This document shows positions 1 to 9,205 of a DNA stretch of 32,000 bases, piece after piece. How positions within the stretch are numbered: the stretch's first letter is position 1; every line of letters starts with the position of its first letter. The DNA lies in the NCBI RefSeq assembly GCF_000172995.2, contig NC_014729.1, positions 2,070,001 through 2,102,000 of the forward strand, read 5' to 3'. Source of the stretch: Halogeometricum borinquense DSM 11551 (lineage in GTDB: Archaea; Halobacteriota; Halobacteria; Halobacteriales; Haloferacaceae). Position numbers and translations under genes: made by a program. The notes below the pieces were generated by a model. The model saw only the letters and a program-made list of their open reading frames with translations, had not been told where the DNA came from and did not search any database.

Positions 1-438
1 GTAGTCGAGAAAGCCCGTCGCGGCCATCGCGCGGAGGAGTCTCGGGGGCGAGGAAACGGCGAGTTGTTCGAGTTCGGGGTTCGCTCGCCGGTACCCGGCG
101 TGCCACGTCTCCATGCTCCGCAGGCCGCCGTGTTCCAGTTGGACGGCGATTTTCCCGCCGTGGTCGTGAATCGCGTCCGTGAGACGGGACAGTTCGGAGA
201 CGAACGCGCGGTCGTGGACGCGAGTCATCCCCGGCGCGGCGCATCCGCCCTCGCCGCGGACGAGCGTCGCCCCCTGACAAATGAGCCCTGCACCGGCCTC
301 GGCGGCGGGTTCCAACTCCGAGATGAGACAGTCTACGGCGTCAGAGCCGTTCCCCGCACACTCCAGCAACGGCGACCGGTAGAGCCGGTTCGGCACCGTC
401 ACGCCGCCGATCTGGAATGGGGATTCGAGACGGGGCAT
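1..438 (-). CDS. NADH:flavin oxidoreductase (Old Yellow Enzyme family), N-terminal part; the gene runs off the left edge
   Basis: Absent from the ORF track because there is no in-window stop. The reverse complement of 438..361 reads ATG CCC CGT CTC GAA TCC... = MPRLESPFQIGGVTVPNRLYRSPLLE, and the frame stays open to base 1 (146 codons). The N-terminal F-x-IG...NR pattern is typical of OYE/NADH-oxidase TIM-barrel flavoenzymes. Confidence 0.65.
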   Translation of the reverse strand, partial: MPRLESPFQIGGVTVPNRLYRSPLLECAGNGSDAVDCLISELEPAAEAGAGLICQGATLVRGEGGCAAPGMTRVHDRAFVSELSRLTDAIHDHGGKIAVQLEHGGLRSMETWHAGYRRANPELEQLAVSSPPRLLRAMAATGFLDY

Positions 439-509
439 ACGCCATCACAGGGGGCGAGCGAGTATAGTTTCTCGGCCGATTCGACGCCGCTACTGGTCGG
501 TAGCGTGCG

Positions 510-1028
510 CTAGTCGGCCGACTCGCCACGGACCTCGCTCGCGGCGCGACGAATCGTCTCGGCCTCGTCCTCGCTGTAGGCGATGAAACGAACGTCTGAG
601 AGCGAGTTGGGGTCGTGGCCGTCGATGACCTCACAAATAATGCGCGCGCCGTCTTCGAGGGCGAACCCGGCGACGCCGCATCCGAGAGCGGGCATCACCA
701 GCGATTCACAGCCGAGTTCGTCGGCGCGCTCCAGCGAGTTGCGCGCGGCGTCGCGGATACTCTCGGCCGTCGCCTGCCCGTCGCCGTAGTGTGGCATCGC
801 GGCGGCGTGAATCACCCAGTCGGCGTCGAGTTCGAAGGCGTCCGTGACGGCAACCGCGCCGAGGTCAACCGGTCCCTCGGCCATCGCCGCCTCGTTCAAC
901 TCCGACCCACCGCCGCGTCTGAGCGCGCCCGCAACGCCCGACCCCATCCGAAGGCTCGTTCCGGCGGCGTTCACGAGTACGTCTGCGGATTGCTGTGCGA
1001 TGTCTCCGTGGACGACGCGAAACTCCAT
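510..1028 (-). CDS. Macro-domain protein (ADP-ribose binding / O-acetyl-ADP-ribose deacetylase-like)
   Basis: ORF 510..1172 trimmed to the internal ATG at 1028..1026 (MEFRVVHGDIAQQSADVLVNAAG...GSGVAGAL...MPALGCGVAGF). These are macro-domain signature stretches. The 48-aa upstream extension is Arg/Pro-rich and overlaps the 3' end of the peptidase gene. Confidence 0.85.
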   Translation of the reverse strand: MEFRVVHGDIAQQSADVLVNAAGTSLRMGSGVAGALRRGGGSELNEAAMAEGPVDLGAVAVTDAFELDADWVIHAAAMPHYGDGQATAESIRDAARNSLERADELGCESLVMPALGCGVAGFALEDGARIICEVIDGHDPNSLSDVRFIAYSEDEAETIRRAASEVRGESAD

Positions 1029-1105
1029 ACTTCGAGATTGCGTGCGAAGGGCAAAAATTCGGGTGCGGTCAGGTGGTGGGTTATCCGCTCGTGTCGCCGT
1101 CTTGA

Positions 1106-3289
1106 TTACTCGTGGGTCTCGTTTTCGGCTTTGTCGTCCGTCTCCACCGCCGGGTCGTGCCGTTCGTACCACGAGGTGATCTCGTCAAGCCGGTGGATGG
1201 CTCGGTCGGGGTCGCCGACGTTGTGATGTTCGTCGGGGTAGATGACGAGGCGCGCCTCGACGCCCTGCTTCTTGGCGCTGACGTACAACTGCTCGGACTG
1301 CGACGGTGGACACCGCCAGTCCTCGCCGCCCGCGATCACGAGAAGCGGCGTTCGAACGTTCCCGATATCGGTGATAGACGACGACGCCTCGAACCTCTCG
1401 GGGTTCTCCCACGGGACGCCGAACTCGTTGTCGGTCCAGATGTGACTGTCGTCGGTGCCGTACGCCGACCGCAGGTCGTAAATGCCGTGTTCCGGTGCGG
1501 CCGCGGTGAAGAGGTCGGGTTCCTGCGTAACGAGAAAGCCCTGTGCGATGCCGCCGTAGGAGAAGCCGTGACCGAAGATGCGATCCTCGGCGGCCCATCC
1601 GCGGGAGACAAGTTCGCGCACGCCGGCGGCGATATCCGTCACTTCAACGGTTCCCCACTGTCCGCGGAGTGCCTCCGCAAACTCGCGTCCGTACGATGAT
1701 CCACCGCGGTAGTTCGGCCGGAACACGAGGTAATCACGGGAGGTGAACACCGCGTGGGTGAATCTGAATACCGGTTCGTCGTAGTTGACCGGACCGCCGT
1801 GGATGGCGACGACCAACGGATGCGGATCTGGATCGTCGAAGTCGAACGACGGCGGCGCGTAGACGATGCCCTCGATTTCCTCGCCGTCGCTCTCGTAGGT
1901 GACCCGCCGAACTTTCGGCAGTTCGTACGTCTCGCGTAGTTCGGCGTTCAGGTCGGTCAGACGCGTCAGATCCGGAGTCGCGTCTATCGAGTCGAGATCG
2001 AATGCGTACAGATCCGATCCTTCGCTCGGATGCGACAGGTGGACGAGGGCGGTTCCGTTGGCCGTCTCGAGCGCTCGGCAGGCCCTGTCGTCGCCCTGCG
2101 CCGTGAACGTCCGTTCCGGCGCGTCCTCGTCCGCAGCGAATCGCACCGGGCGCGTCTTACCTTCGTCACCGATGAGAGCATAGAGCGTCTCGTTGTCCAC
2201 CCAGTTCGGTTCCGAAAAGGAGAGGGTGCGGTCGAGCGACGCTGAAACACTCTCGTAGGCGTCATCTGCGGCGTCGGCGTCGGTGACGTACAGTTGGTCG
2301 GGGAGATGCCAGTTCTCGGCGTCGCCGCCGTTGAACGCGAGTCGGCTTCCGTCGGGGGACCACTGAGGGAGGAGTGTGACACGCTCGCCGTCGGTGTGGC
2401 GTCGTTTCTCCGACCCATCCGGTCGGATGGAGTAGACGTCGCGGATAAACGTATCATCACTTCTCTCGCCCTCGTAGGCGGTGTAGGCGATGCGGTCGTT
2501 CGGCCCCCACGTAGGCATCATCCCGAACTGGTCATCGGACGCGCCGCCCCCTCGTGCGTCGTCGAGGCGTCCCGTGTCGCCCGACTCCGCATCCACGACG
2601 AACAGATACGTCGTGACGGTGTCGAGATAGCCTGCGCCGTCGAATTTGTGCTGGAGTCGCTCCGTCTCGATAGGGCCTCCCTCGCGCCGTTCGTCCAGAT
2701 ACTCGCGTTCCTCCTCAGTCGGGTCGCGCGCCGAGACGACCATTCGGTCGCCATCGGGCGACCAGTCGAACGCTTTCACACCGTCATCGAAGTCAGTCAC
2801 CTGCCGGGCGTCGCCACCGAGTGCGAGATCGAACACCCAGACTTGTGGTTTGGGTTCGTCGTCGCCGGCGGACTGGTGTTCGTCTTCGGACGCACCGTCG
2901 GACTCGCCGTCTTCGGACGTACCGTCAAGCTCATCCGCTTCGATGTCGGCTTCGTCCCGGTCGCCGCTCGTTGCCTCGATATCGTCGTCCGCTGTTTCCT
3001 CGTCGCGGCTTCGGCCGACTCGTCGTGCAGTGTCCTCTGTCCGGGCGGCGACGAAGGCGAGTCGATCACCGTCGGGACTCCACGTCGGACTGGCGGCGGT
3101 GGAGACGCGCGTCAGCCGATGTGGCTCACGGCTTCCATCGGTCGGGACGACGAACAACGAGGCGAGCCGTTCGTCCTCGTCGGGATCAGACTCGCTTGCG
3201 ACGAATGCGGCGCGGTCTCCTGTCGGTGAGAGGGCAACCGCTGAGAGGCTGGTCAGGTCGTAGAACGTCTCGGTTGGAACGGGGTCCAT
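1106..3289 (-). CDS. S9 family serine peptidase (prolyl oligopeptidase / acylaminoacyl-peptidase type): N-terminal beta-propeller plus C-terminal alpha/beta hydrolase
   Basis: 727-aa ORF with ATG at 3289. It has repeated WSPDG propeller motifs (TWSPDGDRLAF, DWSPDGDRMVV, QWSPDGSRLAF), the nucleophile elbow GFSYGG, and a C-terminal GGEDWRCP...DEHH catalytic Asp/His region. A long acidic insertion lies at about 2860-3030. Confidence 0.9.
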   Translation of the reverse strand: MDPVPTETFYDLTSLSAVALSPTGDRAAFVASESDPDEDERLASLFVVPTDGSREPHRLTRVSTAASPTWSPDGDRLAFVAARTEDTARRVGRSRDEETADDDIEATSGDRDEADIEADELDGTSEDGESDGASEDEHQSAGDDEPKPQVWVFDLALGGDARQVTDFDDGVKAFDWSPDGDRMVVSARDPTEEEREYLDERREGGPIETERLQHKFDGAGYLDTVTTYLFVVDAESGDTGRLDDARGGGASDDQFGMMPTWGPNDRIAYTAYEGERSDDTFIRDVYSIRPDGSEKRRHTDGERVTLLPQWSPDGSRLAFNGGDAENWHLPDQLYVTDADAADDAYESVSASLDRTLSFSEPNWVDNETLYALIGDEGKTRPVRFAADEDAPERTFTAQGDDRACRALETANGTALVHLSHPSEGSDLYAFDLDSIDATPDLTRLTDLNAELRETYELPKVRRVTYESDGEEIEGIVYAPPSFDFDDPDPHPLVVAIHGGPVNYDEPVFRFTHAVFTSRDYLVFRPNYRGGSSYGREFAEALRGQWGTVEVTDIAAGVRELVSRGWAAEDRIFGHGFSYGGIAQGFLVTQEPDLFTAAAPEHGIYDLRSAYGTDDSHIWTDNEFGVPWENPERFEASSSITDIGNVRTPLLVIAGGEDWRCPPSQSEQLYVSAKKQGVEARLVIYPDEHHNVGDPDRAIHRLDEITSWYERHDPAVETDDKAENETHE

Positions 3290-3384
3290 GCCATGTCACG
3301 CGCCTGCACGTGGCAAATGTATTAGGGAACCGGAAGGTGGAGTGAACCGAACGGCTCTTTCCCTCCGACCTCGGACCCGACGAC

Positions 3385-4188
3385 ATGGATGACTTCGTCA
3401 CTGCCGACGGCCCGGACCTCGACTCGTTGGCAGCCGTCGCCACTCGCGCTGTCCGCGCTGGAGGCGACTACCTCGAAGACGCCTTCCGAGACGGGTCGGT
3501 TCCGGGTGACTACGGCACCGACGACGTGAAAACCGCCGCAGACCGCGCCGCCGAAGAACGAGTTCTCGACGTTATCCGAGAGTCGTTCCCCGACCACGCC
3601 CTGCACGGCGAGGAGTCCGGCCGAAACGGAGACCACCACTACGAGTGGGTCGTTGACCCGCTCGACGGGACGAACAACTTCGCGGCTGGACTGCCGGCGT
3701 TCGCCACCGCGGCGTGCGTCCTACGCGACGGCGACCCCGTCGTCTCGGCAATCTACGAACCGCTTCCCGATTCAACCTACGTCGCCCGACGCGGCGCGGG
3801 TGCGACGGTAGACGGCGAACCGGTGTCGGCAGAGAGCGATGTCTCTCTCGAACACGGGACTGTCTCGTTCGTCGTCGGCCTCCCTGCCATCCGCGACGAA
3901 GAGCTTGCAGCGACGGCGGACCGAATCGAATCGGCCGTCGAAGACCGATGCAAGCGCGTCGTTTCGACGTGGTCTCCGTGCGTCGATTGGGGACTGCTCG
4001 CCCGCGGCGGGTTGGAAGGTATCGTCTGCTTCTACCCGGACGTGTACGAACAACACGCGGGCGAACTTCTCGCCGCCGAAAGCGGCGTCTACTCGCACGG
4101 AACCGGCACTGACGGCCTCTACGTCGGCGCGACGGACGAGGAGACGGCCGCGGAACTCCATACTGTCACCGAATCTGTTCTCGACTGA
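3385..4188 (+). CDS. Inositol monophosphatase family protein (IMPase/FBPase-like)
   Basis: 267-aa ORF with ATG start. It carries the IMPase motifs HGEESG and WVVDPLDGTNNF, plus a C-terminal WSPCVDW-type motif. Confidence 0.9.
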   Translation: MDDFVTADGPDLDSLAAVATRAVRAGGDYLEDAFRDGSVPGDYGTDDVKTAADRAAEERVLDVIRESFPDHALHGEESGRNGDHHYEWVVDPLDGTNNFAAGLPAFATAACVLRDGDPVVSAIYEPLPDSTYVARRGAGATVDGEPVSAESDVSLEHGTVSFVVGLPAIRDEELAATADRIESAVEDRCKRVVSTWSPCVDWGLLARGGLEGIVCFYPDVYEQHAGELLAAESGVYSHGTGTDGLYVGATDEETAAELHTVTESVLD

Positions 4189-4304
4189 CACAGAGCTAGT
4201 GTTCAAATACGGTCAAAAGGTGGTTCACGGACGTTTGTTGGTTGAATACGTGCGGGAAGCTATCGCATGTATGCTAGATTGATGTTCCCTCATTGCCGTA
4301 CCGT

Positions 4305-4853
4305 CTATTCACAGTCTTCGATAGCGGCATCCAACTCTGCCAAGGACTGTTCAAACTCCTCAAGCAACTCCATACCCCATTCGACAGGCATTGAGCGGAC
4401 ATCGTTGACGTACTCGTGCGCTGCTTCGCTTACCGCTCGGCAGAACTCACACCGCTTAACAACGTAACCACAGGCGCTTTCTGGATCAGCTGATGGCGTC
4501 TTCGAAGTTGAGTGATCTCTCGACTCGCGTATCCGATATGCAACGCGCAACGCTCCCTCTGAAAGCGGTTCCAAGAGTAGATATGATTTGCTGGGAGGGA
4601 ATGTTATTTCTTTAGTTTGGTATATATCTAACTCATTCCTTGCTAGCATACTACTTGCATCGATCAATCTTTGGAAATCTGTCTGAATATATTGTCCCAT
4701 ATAGGTGGGCTTCCACTCATATCTTGACTCAAAATTGTCTTCATTGACCACTCGGGCAATCGAATCGTCATTTACTGTTACTGCGATTCCGCCCAAGAGA
4801 TCGTTTATATCTATTACTTCCTCTTTTATCGAATAGTCTACTGACACATTCAT
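4305..4853 (-). CDS. Hypothetical acidic 182-aa protein (islet gene D; candidate immunity/partner of gene C)
   Basis: ATG at 4853..4851 overlaps the TGA of the upstream ORF (plus strand tcat 4850-4853 = ATGA). The region is AT-rich (a hand count of 4621-4680 gives 20/60 G+C). I recognise no family. There is a Cys cluster, CGYVVKRCEFC...H. Confidence 0.6.
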   Translation of the reverse strand: MNVSVDYSIKEEVIDINDLLGGIAVTVNDDSIARVVNEDNFESRYEWKPTYMGQYIQTDFQRLIDASSMLARNELDIYQTKEITFPPSKSYLLLEPLSEGALRVAYRIRESRDHSTSKTPSADPESACGYVVKRCEFCRAVSEAAHEYVNDVRSMPVEWGMELLEEFEQSLAELDAAIEDCE

Positions 4854-5308
4854 TGATTCTCACCACTAGCAAACGCTGTTTGTACTATGCCTGAGTCAGA
4901 ATTCCGTCTGACATGGATCTGACTAATATCATATTTGTCCAACTTATGACCGTCATAGACTAGCTCTCCAGAATTTCCTCCAACTTCACCCTCTTCGATA
5001 GCTGTTTCAATGACTTGTTTGATATCTGCTGGACCCATGGTTTCGGGAAACGCCTCCTCTACACTTTCCATTGCGGTCCCGGGTGAGATAGGCCAATCAC
5101 CACCAGCAGCAGGATGTCCATGCCTTGCGACAATGTGTTTAAAATCGTGCATACTATCCCCGGTTAGATCAATATCCTCATCCCATTTATCGGAATCCAG
5201 CACATAATGAGGACGATCTCCGTCGCGGTGTGAAATAATCTCGATATCTTCAAGTCCGATTTCAGCGCCGCTTTTCAATTTTCCTTTTCTCGATAATTTG
5301 TGATTCAA
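4850..5308 (-). CDS. Hypothetical 152-aa ORF (islet gene C) with no ATG start; probably the detached C-terminal domain of the orphan DUF4157 module upstream
   Basis: The track 'M' at 5308 is a TTG, and the first ATG is at codon 53. The same frame is open upstream to a stop at 5429-5431, so it overlaps the end of ORF 5377..5766. I recognise no family. Contains DFKHIVARHGHPAAGG. Confidence 0.5.
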   Translation of the reverse strand: MNHKLSRKGKLKSGAEIGLEDIEIISHRDGDRPHYVLDSDKWDEDIDLTGDSMHDFKHIVARHGHPAAGGDWPISPGTAMESVEEAFPETMGPADIKQVIETAIEEGEVGGNSGELVYDGHKLDKYDISQIHVRRNSDSGIVQTAFASGENQ

Positions 5309-5376
5309 CCCCGTAAGCTGTCCTGCAAGTTGTGATAGGAATTCGTTGATATTCGAAAAATCATCTGTTCTTTCAA

Positions 5377-5766
5377 CTATCGAACTAATTCTGATTTCTG
5401 TTCGGAATCGAGTTCCCCCTGTAATTGATCAGCGGACTTCATCCGCTGGACGTGTACTTCAGCCTTGGACACCCGATGTACACCAATCTTCCAACCCTCT
5501 ACCACGCGTTGGGCAGTGTCCTCGGCTTCGCGTTCGAGACGCTCATCGGGGTCAATCTCTAACTCGCCCGCTTGGGGGAGCATCGACACCGCGCCACCAG
5601 TCTGCTGGCGCACGTGCGCGAGTTCGTGGGCGAGAATATGCTGACCTTCAGCACTCGATGGATCGTATTCGCCGTGGTTGAACGCGATGTGATTGCCGAC
5701 AGTAAAGGCACGAGCGTTGATGTCTTCACAGGCTTTCGCGGCCGATGGACCCGTGTGAATACGCAC
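5377..5766 (-). CDS. Orphan DUF4157 (HExxH zincin-like) module, a truncated paralog of the 6656..8176 protein; it has no ATG and may be a silent or frameshifted cassette
   Basis: The sequence VRIHTGPSAAKACEDINARAFTVGNHIAFNHGEYDPSSAEGQHILAHELAHVRQQ is almost identical to residues in the large protein. The track start is a GTG, which is the V of the conserved D-V-R-I-H. Homology starts about 9 nt after the stop of the preceding gene (5799-5801). After HVQR only 21 unrelated residues follow before TAG at 5377-5379. Confidence 0.6.
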   Translation of the reverse strand: MRIHTGPSAAKACEDINARAFTVGNHIAFNHGEYDPSSAEGQHILAHELAHVRQQTGGAVSMLPQAGELEIDPDERLEREAEDTAQRVVEGWKIGVHRVSKAEVHVQRMKSADQLQGELDSEQKSELVR

Positions 5767-5790
5767 GTCACCGAGCGAGCCACCTATCCG
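5443..5790 (-). repeat. Direct repeat copy 2 (DUF4157-encoding block)
   Basis: Aligns with 7340..7687 at a constant offset of 1897 bp. I counted 7 mismatches in the 120 nt 5581-5700 against 7478-7597. The protein level shows about 13 differences over 108 aa. Confidence 0.85.
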
Positions 5791-5798
5791 ATAACCCG

Positions 5799-6659
5799 TT
5801 ATTTGTTGTCTGCGACTGCGCCTGCAATTTTGGCCATTTCTTTCCCCTGTTCGCCGAAGCCATAATCGAATTCGAGCGAATAGCCCGGGATGTCCGCGTG
5901 CAGTTTATGATATGGCCGATACGGACGATCCTCGTAGAGATATCGTGTCGCAGCGTCGTAGAGCCCCGGACCGATCACTCGGTACTGTTCTGGTGGCTCT
6001 TCCCCTCGAAGGAGATAGCAGTCTCGGATTTGGCAGCGGAGATGATAGACGAAAAACTCCTGAGCAACCTCCAGTGATGGCAAGTAGTTGGGTTTCAGTT
6101 GTAATCGGGCGTCAGGATCTCGATTGAGGGGCTGATCGCCGAGAACCACCTGCCTCTCCCGGTTGTCATCCAGATAGAGGAAATGAATGTCCGACACCGC
6201 TTCGATCCGGCCAGCTTCATCCAGATAGACATCGAGCAGATACAGAACGAACTCGTCGTCACCGACGGCATCGGGCTCCGGAACTGGCGCGGTCACGTTC
6301 GGGAGCCGACTGTTGATCTGATCGAAGTACGTCCCGAAGTACTTCTCGAAGTCCTCGTCCGAGAGCGACTCGATGGCTGTTTGGACCCGCTGCATCGCCG
6401 CAGTGTCTCGGTCCCACGGAAGCACGTCGTATCCCTTCTCTTTGGCGACGTAGTACTTGGCATACCGGCGCGCCTGGCTCACGTACTCGTTTTCTTTCCC
6501 AGTACGTTTGGCTGGGTCGTCCGGGTAGCCGTCTTGGGAATGGCCCTGGATTTCTCCATCGAACCCAACTGCAACGGTATGTTCCGTCTCATCGTTATCA
6601 TGGACTCTCACCCCAATTCCTTTATTATCTTGGTCGATGATTTTTGCATTCATATTCAT
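5799..6659 (-). CDS. Hypothetical acidic 286-aa protein (islet gene B; candidate immunity/partner of the DUF4157 protein)
   Basis: ATG at 6659..6657 overlaps the TGA of the upstream gene (plus strand tcat 6656-6659 = ATGA). It has no TM segment and no motif I recognise. Confidence 0.7.
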   Translation of the reverse strand: MNMNAKIIDQDNKGIGVRVHDNDETEHTVAVGFDGEIQGHSQDGYPDDPAKRTGKENEYVSQARRYAKYYVAKEKGYDVLPWDRDTAAMQRVQTAIESLSDEDFEKYFGTYFDQINSRLPNVTAPVPEPDAVGDDEFVLYLLDVYLDEAGRIEAVSDIHFLYLDDNRERQVVLGDQPLNRDPDARLQLKPNYLPSLEVAQEFFVYHLRCQIRDCYLLRGEEPPEQYRVIGPGLYDAATRYLYEDRPYRPYHKLHADIPGYSLEFDYGFGEQGKEMAKIAGAVADNK

Positions 6660-8176
6660 TTGTCGTCGAAGCGGGTATCGCCAGTCTCGTCGTGACTGGT
6701 GAGTTTGTCCTTGCCGTAACTTAGTGCTATACCAGTCAATAATGCTCCGAACGCGACAGTGATATTCTCGAAGAGACCAGCCCCTTGTGGGCCGACCATG
6801 TCGAGTTCGGATTGCAACATCGACGCAAGCGTCGCGTGATCGGTTTGGGACTCGATTGCCTTGTATACCACTGCTGCGACACCAGTGCTGATCCCTACGT
6901 CAGTTAGAAAATCTCGAAATGTGCTTTCCTCGGGGAGTTCCCCCTGTTGGAGTTCCGAAAGGATATCGTTACTGAGAGTCTCGAATTCGGAGACGAGTTG
7001 TTTGTGCTTTTCGACTAACTTCTGCTGGTCCTGTGAGAGGCCCATCTCGGAGAGATCGTGGTCATGTGAGACCGTCACGGCCAATCCGTCTCGAAGTGGA
7101 GTCGGTGTCTCCTCTCTCAGCGTCGTCTCACCAGCCGCTGGTTCCACGGTTACTCCCGTCGCTGCGCTGAGCTCGTTGATCTCCGTCGCTAACTCTTCAA
7201 GATCCGCAACAGCAGACTGCAGTTGTTCTAACTTCTCGGGGTCGATATCTAATAGGACACCTTGGGTAGCTTCCTCTTCGATGATTGCCTGCTCCGTGTC
7301 GCCCATCGAGGGAATATACTCCGAGACGTCTTTCGGTGAGCGCTGAACGTGCACGTCGGAGTGCTCCATGCGATGTACGCCGATTTTCCCACCTTGCATC
7401 ACGCGCTGGGCGGTTTCTTCGGCTTCCCGCTCTAAGCGTGGGTCAGGATCAATTTCTAACGAACCCTCTTGGGGGAGCATCGACACCGCGCCACCAGTTT
7501 GTTGGCGCACGTGTGCGAGTTCGTGGGCGAGAATATGCTGGCCTTCAGCACTTGATGGATCGTATTCGCCGTGGTTGAACGCGATGTGATTCCCCACAGT
7601 AAACGCGCGGGCGTTGATGTCTTCGCAGGCTTTCGCGGCGGATGGATCCGTGTGGATTCGAACGTCGCTCAGATTGTCGCCCATTCGGTCTTCCATCGCG
7701 CGCTGAATCGAGGTGTCGAGTTGTTGGCCCGGCGAGGAAATAACGTCTCGTACGGAGTCGGGCACGTTCGCGTCGCCAGCCTTTGACGCCTCATGATGCG
7801 CGCCACGACTGCGCTGGACAGATTTAGCGTTCCGGCGCTCGATGTCTTTGGGAACTTCGGCAGGGCGCTCCTGCTGACGCTGGCGGAACGCGCGCATGTC
7901 GCGTGGCTTGCCCATCGTATCGACGGTCATGCCTTCGTCGGCCCATTCTCGGACTTGGTCTGCGCCGTGTTTCTTGGCCAGTCGCTGAATCTTCGTATCC
8001 AGCCCGTCCATGTATATTTCGACGCCGAATCGTGATTCACACTCTTGGGGTGTTAGCGATCCACCGCCACCACGACTCTGATTTCGATTCGAGCCTCCCG
8101 TCAGCTCTTGAATAGACGGAACGGACGAGGACTCTTTGCTCGGAGTCGTCCGCTCGTTTGCAGACCGAAATCCCAT
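6656..8176 (-). CDS. DUF4157 domain protein (zincin-like HExxH), 506 aa, with a divergent C-terminal tail ending in two hydrophobic segments (islet gene A)
   Basis: The track ORF 6656..8269 starts at a TTG; I trimmed it to the ATG at 8176..8174 (MGFRSANERTT...), which sits 27 nt downstream of a TATA box. The DUF4157 hallmark is present: GQQLDTSIQRAMEDRMGDNLSDVRIHTDPSAAKA...ARAFTVGNHIAFNHGEYDP...GQHILAHELAHVRQQ. The C-terminus has GISTGVAAVVYKAI and GLFENITVAFGALLTGIALSYG. Confidence 0.85.
   Translation of the reverse strand: MGFRSANERTTPSKESSSVPSIQELTGGSNRNQSRGGGGSLTPQECESRFGVEIYMDGLDTKIQRLAKKHGADQVREWADEGMTVDTMGKPRDMRAFRQRQQERPAEVPKDIERRNAKSVQRSRGAHHEASKAGDANVPDSVRDVISSPGQQLDTSIQRAMEDRMGDNLSDVRIHTDPSAAKACEDINARAFTVGNHIAFNHGEYDPSSAEGQHILAHELAHVRQQTGGAVSMLPQEGSLEIDPDPRLEREAEETAQRVMQGGKIGVHRMEHSDVHVQRSPKDVSEYIPSMGDTEQAIIEEEATQGVLLDIDPEKLEQLQSAVADLEELATEINELSAATGVTVEPAAGETTLREETPTPLRDGLAVTVSHDHDLSEMGLSQDQQKLVEKHKQLVSEFETLSNDILSELQQGELPEESTFRDFLTDVGISTGVAAVVYKAIESQTDHATLASMLQSELDMVGPQGAGLFENITVAFGALLTGIALSYGKDKLTSHDETGDTRFDDK
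7340..7687 (-). repeat. Direct repeat copy 1 (DUF4157-encoding block inside gene A)
   Basis: See 5443..5790: same orientation, offset 1897 bp. Confidence 0.85.
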
Positions 8177-8202
8177 TCTTACTGCAAACTTGATAGCTAT
8201 CC

Positions 8203-8216
8203 TATATAATTGTTCG
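8203..8216 (-). promoter_or_regulatory. Archaeal BRE/TATA promoter for islet gene A (leaderless or near-leaderless transcript)
   Basis: The minus strand reads CGAACAA TTATATA, followed by 26 nt, then the ATG at 8176. This spacing is typical for haloarchaeal leaderless genes. Confidence 0.55.
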
Positions 8217-8404
8217 TTCCTCGGCTTCGTGGTGTGCAGATATGGGGGACGGATCGGCGTATGTGCCAATTACTTCGGAGATATTCGACCAAAAACCGCC
8301 GAAATATGGGATCAAGTGTTTGCGTTTTGCTCGAATCAGATACGCTGAACAATACTGCCAGACGGCAGCAAAGTGCAAGTACGCGCGGTACTGATTGTCA
8401 AGAT

Positions 8405-9205
8405 ATGCGTTCCGGAGATGCCGCGTTCGGGGACGAGGCACTGGTCCAGATGCGGTGGCGCGACGCGCTGTTCGCCCACTGGGAGACTGACCCGGAAACG
8501 GTAGCCGGACGCCTCCCGCCGGGTGTCGAGGTTGCCACGTTCGACGGTCACGCGTGGCTCGGCGTCGTCGCGTTCGTTATGGAGGATATCCGCCCGTGCG
8601 GTGTCCCGTTCGGTCTCTCTTTTCCTGAGTTGAACCTTCGGACGTACGTTACACGCTCAGTGGACGACGCTGAACGTTCTGAAGACGATACCGAACGGTC
8701 AGGAGACGGCGCTGAAGCGAGTTCGACCGGCCACCGAACGCAGTCCGGAGACAGCGCCCGCGCGGTGTACTTTTTCAATCTCGATGCCGACGACAGACTC
8801 GGCGTCGCCCTCGCACGGTTGCTGTACTCGCTTCCGTACTACCGAGCAGATATGCGCGTCCGAAGCGGTGCGGACGAATCTATCGAATTCGCCAGTCAGC
8901 GCACCCACTGGAACGCGCCCCCTGCGCACTTCGATGCGACCTACGAACCCGTCGGTGACGACTTCACACCGGAACCCGGTACGCTTGAACACTTCTTTGT
9001 CGAGAACTATCGGTTCTACACGGTCGGGCGGCGACTCTACTACGGTGACATTTCGCATCCCCCGTGGCCGCTTTATGAAGCAAACGCCGAGATTCGGTCG
9101 AACACGCTATTCGCAGCCAACGGGTTCGAGACGCCGACCGACGAACCAGTGGTACACTACTCACCGGGAATCGAAGTGACGGCCGGACGTATCCACCGGG
9201 CCTGA
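8405..9205 (+). CDS. DUF2071 (YqjF-like) family protein
   Basis: ORF 8210..9205 trimmed to the ATG at 8405 (MRSGDAAFGDEALVQMRWRDALFAHWETDPETVAGRLPPGVEVATFDGHAWLGVVAFVMEDIRP). The W-x-D-x-LF-x-HW...LP-x-G...D-x-F-x-G-x-AW-x-GVV-x-F pattern is the DUF2071 N-terminus. An acidic 3x7-aa repeat insertion is present. Confidence 0.8.
   Translation: MRSGDAAFGDEALVQMRWRDALFAHWETDPETVAGRLPPGVEVATFDGHAWLGVVAFVMEDIRPCGVPFGLSFPELNLRTYVTRSVDDAERSEDDTERSGDGAEASSTGHRTQSGDSARAVYFFNLDADDRLGVALARLLYSLPYYRADMRVRSGADESIEFASQRTHWNAPPAHFDATYEPVGDDFTPEPGTLEHFFVENYRFYTVGRRLYYGDISHPPWPLYEANAEIRSNTLFAANGFETPTDEPVVHYSPGIEVTAGRIHRA

Follow-up and report, generated by a model that had tools for sequence, protein, structure and literature searches.

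Related Toxin Systems and Identity of the Locus

The orphan cdiA-CT/cdiI and rhs-CT/rhsI modules define the anatomy of orphan cassettes in the bacterial polymorphic toxin loci of the contact-dependent growth inhibition (CDI) and Rhs types. The element described here is located at 4305–5790 on the minus strand of a 32,000-nucleotide (nt) stretch of the Halogeometricum borinquense DSM 11551 chromosome (the window, in whose numbering positions are given unless another contig is named); all genes of the locus are on this strand. It comprises a remnant of a DUF4157 domain (A'), a C-terminal (CT) toxin domain encoded in a second frame (the C frame), and a gene for a 182-amino acid (aa) protein, and it lies downstream of a full-length DUF4157 gene (gene A) and the partner of that gene. 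We consider it highly probable that the element is a displaced, silent, and decayed orphan toxin-immunity cassette that was broken by the loss of one A at 5395–5397. As in CDI and Rhs loci, the main toxin-immunity pair is followed downstream by a fragment with neither promoter nor start codon; part of the constant region is preserved as a handle for recombination; the CT diverges beyond a sharp boundary motif, which is VHVQR at this locus and is analogous to VENN or PxxxxDPxGL; an intact gene for the cognate (here putative) immunity protein comes next; the GC content is atypical; and the same CT is carried elsewhere by other delivery scaffolds. The locus differs from the bacterial examples in that the host is an archaeon, that the constant region is DUF4157/eCIS_core rather than a filamentous haemagglutinin repeat or an Rhs/YD shell, and that the orphan also bears an inactivating frameshift.

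H. borinquense kills Haloferax volcanii by means of a membrane-anchored, type VI secretion system (T6SS)-like contractile injection system (CIS) (Zachs et al. 2024, PMC11566945). The secretion of DUF4157 proteins depends on this CIS, and several of them are toxic unless the downstream gene is co-expressed (PMC11566945). The toxins reported for this T6SS-like CIS include Hbor_02990, Hbor_38740, and Hbor_38900, and the DUF4157 proteins detected in the published secretome are Hbor_01880, 02990, 07690, 38720, and 38900 (PMC11566945). An N-terminal DUF4157 combined with a C-terminal toxin is also the architecture of toxins associated with extracellular CIS (eCIS) (Geller et al. 2021, PMC8213781). 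The present locus belongs to the same organism (PMC11566945); gene A and the homologs P0002 and P0004, described below, have DUF4157 toward the N terminus, a C-terminal toxin, and a putative immunity gene downstream; and the HExxH motif of the domain (HELAH) is retained in the orphan. Unlike the described effectors, the orphan lacks the N-terminal ~160 residues, the locus is outside the CIS cluster, and neither gene A nor the orphan is among the proteins found to be secreted or tested in PMC11566945. By its sequence, gene A fits the DUF4157 effector class, with the orphan as a disabled spare of the gene A type. Orphan cassettes are not described in Zachs et al. (PMC11566945) or Danov et al. 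2024 (PMC11297309), where the word "orphan" was searched for; it is absent from the main text of PMC11297309 and occurs in PMC11566945 only as an author name.

Reading Frames and Fused Homologs

In the A' frame, the reading ...VHVQRMKSADQLQGELDSEQKSELVR is ended by TAG 5379–5377, and the C frame is open from 5428, directly after a TGA (5431–5429). The two open frames overlap over 49 nt (5380–5428), an interval that includes a coding-strand GGGGG run at 5415–5419, and the insertion of one base into this run gives an uninterrupted fused open reading frame (ORF). The 40 codons of the C frame ahead of TTG 5308–5306, the start assigned to an annotated 152-aa ORF, contain no ATG, GTG, or TTG. These features had been recorded in a first-pass annotation of the window, which proposed that A' and C are one broken gene encoding DUF4157, a linker, and a new C-terminal domain, mirroring gene A, and which recommended a search for intact fused homologs. 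That search was successful: DUF4157 and the same CT are found in one frame in a number of proteins, and the proposal of one broken gene is borne out by them.

An exhaustive HMMER search over 1.84 billion representatives gave 20 relatives of the C frame. A word-indexed protein search with the C frame returned only the 152-aa ORF of H. borinquense itself, and a profile scan of genome contigs found no relatives. The best of these, P0002 (439 aa, E 3.9e-60), P0004 (478 aa, E 2.9e-42), P0010, and P0013, are longer proteins that carry the domain of the C frame at the C terminus; a further fused homolog, P0022, came from a second search. Pfam places PF13699 (DUF4157/eCIS_core) upstream and in the same frame in each of these proteins. 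Another intact fusion is encoded by a metagenomic contig, L004, in which EFLSQLAGQLTGLNHKLSRKGKLK is identical to the window. The matches begin at query residues 10–13, about 30 residues upstream of TTG 5308, and therefore the ATG-less stretch belongs to the coding sequence of the ancestral gene. The distance between the ELD and SQL anchors is 71 nt in the window versus 72 nt in the homologs. On these comparisons, A' and C derive from a single ancestral gene. The annotated 152-aa "gene C" (ADQ67734.1/WP_013440640.1), which corresponds to the 3' part of the CT domain frame, would be an ORF-calling artefact of a pseudogene, one half of which is this "hypothetical" ORF and the other half the unannotated DUF4157 stub.

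The remnant A' (5443–5790, minus strand) ends at the VHVQR boundary and matches PF13699 at profile positions 13–78 of 79, with 95.5 bits versus a gathering cut-off of 22. It is 85% identical in amino acid sequence to residues 164–279 of gene A and 85% identical in nucleotide sequence over 296 nt (5474–5769 versus 7371–7666). The similarity to gene A stops directly after VHVQR, and the two sequences are unrelated beyond this point. At the other end, the first 12 positions of the profile and all sequence N-terminal to them are absent; A' starts ~9 nt past the stop codon of the preceding gene, there is no start codon there, and the sole in-frame start is a GTG inside the domain. Because the N-terminal ~160 residues and the first 12 DUF4157 positions are missing, the orphan as read from its sequence cannot be an active effector. 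The same CT ends proteins of 2060/2080 aa and 1291 aa that have no DUF4157, as well as several DUF4157 proteins, and the metagenomic contig L005 has the same layout as the window, with the stop of a preceding gene, a truncated DUF4157, and the same CT, which is again frameshifted. Tested as an orphan cassette, the locus shows a constant region shared up to a sharp boundary, no delivery region or start, a CT that is present on unrelated large proteins, and a partner gene downstream. The GC content falls along the locus from 64–66% in the flanks to 54–59% in gene A and the remnant (59% in the remnant) and to 44–45% in the C frame and the 182-aa gene; the low GC of the CT and the 182-aa gene fits a foreign cassette.

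Several details of these homologs were recorded. The orphan cassette of L005 (ERZ1034488 NODE_7435) occupies 520–1383 of that contig; its truncated DUF4157 begins ...IAFDHGEYDP, and a long A-rich run (GAAAAATAAAAAAAGAAAG) is where its CT is interrupted; the coverage is only ~3x, so that this frameshift may be an assembly error. The 2080-aa protein is encoded at 241–6483 of a marine metagenome contig (L003, ORCR01000529) and is a secreted, repeat-rich surface protein with three large internal repeats and the same CT, followed by an immunity homolog; judged from its sequence, this toxin is apparently delivered by a non-CIS route. The motif (V/I)H(V/I)QR, at 5443–5457 and 7341–7355 of the window, is the exact end of the similarity between gene A and the orphan and precedes a variable linker and the CT in P0002, P0004, P0013, P0022, L004, and L005. 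By analogy with VENN in CdiA, it may be the constant/variable demarcation motif of this group of effectors.

Location of the Frameshift

The linker that follows VHVQR in the A' frame (5398–5442; MKSADQLQGELDSEQ) holds the G5 run and aligns in frame with the linkers of the intact P0002, P0004, P0022, and L004. P0002 reads VHVQR-LKSSERLLDELDSEQKQKINPIIKNTEDF, P0004 reads IHVQR-RKSAETLREELDAEREARVERIVERVDEV, and L004 reads IQR-VKSVEQLQDEITNEQQNRVNTIVEQTNDF; the intact fused homologs continue as ...VHVQR-KS...ELDSEQK... in the upstream frame, past the G-run. In the A' frame the window reads QLQGELDSEQK beyond the G-run; in the C frame it reads IVERTDDF. The position of the break was also scanned by inserting N at each position and scoring the product (BLOSUM62) against P0002 and P0004. 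A break in the G-run scores 97–98 versus P0002 and 100–103 versus P0004, a break within a plateau at 5380–5400 scores 128–141 and 121–130, and a break at 5392–5394 scores 140–141 and 129–130, respectively.

The syntenic locus was obtained from seven other H. borinquense assemblies or read sets, giving eight in all with the window; they include AOHT01000051.1 (L001, a draft of the same strain), RZHH01 (L006), JAXCMF01 (L007), and CP050274.1 (L008). The lengths of the G-, A-, and T-runs are G5/A3/T5 in the window, L001, L006, L009, and L010 and G5/A4/T4 in L002, L007, and L008. At the A-run, L002, L007, and L008 have CAGAAAACC, the intact L004 has CAACAAAATC, and the window has CAGAAATC. A run of four A joins the frames, with A' running into the C reading as ELDSEQK-T/I-RISSIVERTDD and ELDSEQK-I-RISSIVERTDDF. 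Because the intact L004 has AAAATC at this position, the parsimonious ancestor is CAG AAA ATC AGA. By this alignment the window has lost one A, AAAA to AAA, at 5395–5397, 18 nt downstream of the G-run, and this A3 run, next to the peak of the break scores and A4 in L002, L007, L008, and L004, is the actual frameshift site. The premature TAG of the A' frame (5377–5379) was created by the deletion. The second haplotype has kept A4 and has lost one T from the T5 run that is intact in the window (5356–5360), which is a separate lesion, and the in-frame combination A4/T5 is present in none of the eight assemblies. These two lesions indicate that the cassette has been inactivated at least twice, independently. 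One other candidate for the break, exactly at CGA|TAG (5380/5379), is suggested by P0004 alone and was rejected, as comparison with the syntenic haplotype and with L004 points to the A-run instead.

The second haplotype has further changes. In L007 and L002, 29 nt ahead of VHVQR are missing as well, and in L008 the stretch before VHVQR is scrambled, the CT is rearranged, and the 182-aa gene is broken. At ~4100–5000 of the L008 locus the CT reads ...WDEDQLIQSACGYVVKHIVARH... and includes SACGYVVK, which is otherwise part of the 182-aa gene; stop codons interrupt the 182-aa gene, and the locus is shortened by 22 nt. This pattern could represent a real rearrangement of CT and immunity gene or an assembly problem.

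The first-pass annotation had located the break at the G5 run (5415–5419) and had considered this run as a phase-variable slip site at which a change between G5 and G6 would toggle the fusion. The run does lie within the 49-nt overlap of the frames, and one added G does give an open fused frame, but this location is extremely unlikely. The conserved ELDSEQK is encoded beyond the run in the A' frame, a break in the run scores ~30–43 BLOSUM units below one at 5392–5394, and the intact L004 has CAAGACGAA at this position and no homopolymer. The run is G5 in 8/8 assemblies, including those of the haplotype whose lesion is elsewhere; it is read in frame (Q-G-E) and is not the lesion. The A- and T-runs each occur in two fixed states that are linked to the haplotype, which is not the behaviour of a phase-variable locus. 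Thus the earlier statement that a single missing base splits A' from C stands, and its placement at G5 does not, because the alignments put the divergence of the frames outside the G-run. The junction peptide ...QLQGGTRFRTEIRISS... that followed from that placement is wrong, and the ancestral reading is ...QLQGELDSEQKIRISSIVER....

It was also suggested that the break is a sequencing or assembly error and that the fused gene is in truth intact in the genome. A homopolymer that differs by 1 nt, as here, is an error type typical of some platforms, but the same A3/T5 state is seen in the window, which is from the complete genome, as well as in the independent draft AOHT01000051 (L001) and in RZHH01 (L006), and it recurs in two Logan assemblies from the separate read sets SRR9434877 and ERR481281, that is, in at least five assemblies or read sets. 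In addition, a run of three A is too short to be error-prone. We therefore attach almost no weight to an error.

Programmed −1 ribosomal frameshifting or transcriptional slippage would allow a fused protein to be made from the broken gene. The shift from A' to C is in the −1 direction, and the other haplotype is broken at a T4 run that would in principle permit re-pairing of tRNA-Phe. Within 5377–5457, however, the A' frame contains no X XXY YYZ slippery heptamer, and the AAA, which follows a G, would be unable to re-pair at −1. The 101 nt from the shift site are no more stably folded than shuffled sequence (z = −0.90), and Rfam gave no match in 4000–8600. Runs of 3–5 nt are too short for transcriptional slippage, and those at this locus are of that length. 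The homologs are encoded in frame, the position of the break differs between the haplotypes, and the orphan lacks a start codon and the N-terminal delivery region. A recoded fusion is accordingly very hard to reconcile with the locus. Among the options that had been listed for the break (a decayed orphan toxin, a phase-variable slip site, a −1 frameshift site, or a sequencing error), only the decayed orphan toxin is backed by evidence.

Predicted Structure of the CT Domain

The CT domain is encoded in the C frame at 4850–5394 (minus strand; IRISSIVERTDDF...ENQ*). An AlphaFold2 (AF2) model from an 18-sequence alignment has a predicted local distance difference test (pLDDT) of 89 and a predicted template modelling score (pTM) of 0.85. 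The top match of this model in the Protein Data Bank (PDB), found with Foldseek, is 7m5f_C, the CdiA-CT of Serratia marcescens BWH57 (prob 0.99, E 7e-3, template modelling (TM) scores of 0.44 and 0.62). The next matches are HigB2, XendoU, CdiA-CT NC101, and HigB1, all with E > 1. In a 14-sequence alignment of the CT, only K91, H108, and H113 are invariant (NKW, KHIVARH). The H-x4-H spacing of the two histidines is that of the 7M5F toxin, to which the depositors assign a BECR RNase fold with a probable active site comprising H47/E51/H52/R89 (PMC8616854). Both are small α+β toxin domains at the C terminus of a polymorphic toxin, and the His-x4-His pair, H47/H52 in 7M5F according to its depositors, corresponds to that of the invariant KHIVARH in the CT. 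They differ in that the sequence identity is 17% and that the CT has an extra N-terminal helical segment. The cognate immunity protein CdiI-BWH57 has 98 aa and is unrelated in size to the 182-aa protein of this locus. With moderate confidence, the model predicts that the CT domain is a BECR-type RNase. Pfam, NCBIfam, and PADLOC gave no match for the CT, for the 182-aa protein, or for the C-terminal domain of gene A, and a profile search with the CT against PDB sequences gave only noise.

The 182-aa Partner Gene and Selection on the Cassette

The 182-aa gene is located at 4305–4853 (minus strand), and its ATG overlaps the stop of the toxin frame (ATGA). Its product is 44% identical (E 5e-56) to the protein encoded directly downstream of the 2080-aa toxin in L003, and therefore the CT and its partner move together. 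The gene is intact in seven of the eight assemblies. From this conserved linkage it is the putative cognate immunity gene of the CT.

The window and L007 were compared by synonymous divergence (dS) and by the ratio of non-synonymous to synonymous rates (omega). The values are dS 0.49 and omega 0.12 for the CT, dS 0.09 and omega 0.23 for the 182-aa gene, and dS 0.10 and omega 0.10 for a flanking inositol-phosphatase gene. On these values the CT alleles long predate the strains and diverged under constraint. The constraint signal would point to divergence in functional alleles that were later imported by recombination and then decayed recently; import by recombination is proposed because the dS of the flank is only 0.10 and because of the identity profiles and the mosaic structure of L008. 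Between the window and the near-identical L006, the CT has two non-synonymous and no synonymous differences, one being a G to S change in the conserved GDGMHDF, and the 182-aa gene has no non-synonymous and three synonymous differences. The direction of these changes would fit relaxed constraint on the toxin and retention of the immunity gene, the numbers being tiny.

Instead of being part of a pseudogene, C might be a genuine stand-alone gene that functions from TTG 5308 or an internal start, for example in a toxin-antitoxin-like pair with the 182-aa protein. Every assembly keeps the 152-aa ORF open, the comparison of haplotypes gives the CT an omega of 0.12, and the 152-aa part includes all of the catalytic-looking K/H/H residues. 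Against this, the homology to fused proteins reaches ~30 residues upstream of the TTG, with EFLSQLAGQLTGLNHKLSRKGKLK identical in the intact L004, and the seemingly free-standing homologs are short fragments or start in the middle of the domain. The dS of the CT is high relative to the flanks, as expected from imported alleles and not from constraint in situ; in L008 the CT is scrambled and the partner gene is broken; and the recent changes of the CT in the window lineage are all non-synonymous. A stand-alone gene is thus improbable. There is a similarly small chance that the CT is alive in some form, whether expressed alone, domesticated in a toxin-antitoxin-like pair with the 182-aa protein, or held as a reserve that could be reactivated by reversion of A3 to A4 and recombination with gene A through the 296-nt handle. 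The CT is cut off from the DUF4157 stub in every assembly, and its K/H/H residues are kept inside an open 152-aa ORF that overlaps the intact partner gene. The chief ground for leaving some room for a functional stand-alone CT is the selection signal.

Proposed Origin of the Cassette

The decayed orphan cassette most likely originated by cassette displacement at an ancestral DUF4157 toxin gene that bore a C-type CT and was followed by the 182-aa immunity gene. A newer cassette, consisting of the CT of gene A and the DUF7958 gene next to it, would have been inserted by recombination inside the DUF4157 region, the direction of the event being deduced. The displacement would have left a DUF4157 stub without promoter or start codon, fused to the old CT. 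In the haplotype of DSM 11551 one A of the A4 run was lost, which put the CT out of frame and created the TAG at 5379–5377. The toxin part is presumably non-functional now, and the 182-aa gene may have been kept as a stand-alone immunity gene against neighbours that still deploy the same toxin.

Several points weigh against the decayed orphan cassette as described. Some of the eight assemblies are possibly one strain that was re-sequenced, and the independent evidence then consists of the two haplotypes and their variants. The structural match of the CT is only moderate (E 7e-3, TM 0.44 and 0.62). The five DUF4157 proteins detected in the published secretome do not include the product of gene A (PMC11566945). 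Finally, an omega of 0.12 at a dS of 0.49 is unlike that of a long-dead pseudogene, and the CT is possibly still under selection.

Archaeal T6SS-like DUF4157 effectors appear to evolve like the bacterial CDI/Rhs toxins: cassettes would be displaced, the constant and variable parts meet at a sharp boundary (VHVQR), orphan modules occur, and immunity genes would be retained. The locus would define an unannotated toxin domain family, a probable BECR RNase by prediction, together with its putative immunity family; both families are present in haloarchaea and in hypersaline or marine metagenomes.

Gene A, Its Partner, and Variation among Strains

Gene A (6656–8176, minus strand) encodes 506 aa starting MGFRS, and its translation matches PF13699 DUF4157/eCIS_core with 111 bits (E 2.7e-32). 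An N-terminal region precedes DUF4157/eCIS_core, which is followed by the VHVQR boundary and then by the gene's own C-terminal domain, which includes two hydrophobic stretches. The C terminus (6656–6900) has no family match and ends in the hydrophobic GISTGVAAVVYKAI and GLFENITVAFGALLTGIALSYG, a sequence that suggests a membrane-inserting toxin. The gene for the 286-aa protein Hbor_21720 (ADQ67735.1; 5799–6659, minus strand) follows, with its start overlapping the stop of gene A. The DUF7958 label of this gene (PF25858) comes from precomputed contig tables only; searches of Pfam-A and NCBIfam left the 286-aa protein unmatched, and it has close homologs in Haloarcula. Its position suggests that it encodes the immunity protein paired with gene A.

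Full-length gene A is found only in the window strain and CP050274 among the strains compared. L007 (JAXCMF01) lacks window 7550–8295, which comprises the promoter, the N terminus, and the first half of DUF4157 of gene A, and therefore only truncated modules are left in that strain. L006 (RZHH01) has a rearranged left flank upstream of window 7682, where an AMP-binding gene is found along with short duplicated segments of gene A. The draft L001 (AOHT01000051.1) has N-gaps in gene A at 3257–3258 and 3834, one of which hides 103 bp and the other of which flanks an artificial duplication of 89 bp. The differences of gene A in L001 were considered as biological variation and rejected in favour of these scaffold gaps and the duplicated stretch of the draft, which probably explain why gene A is called with 468 aa in L001 versus 506 aa in the window.

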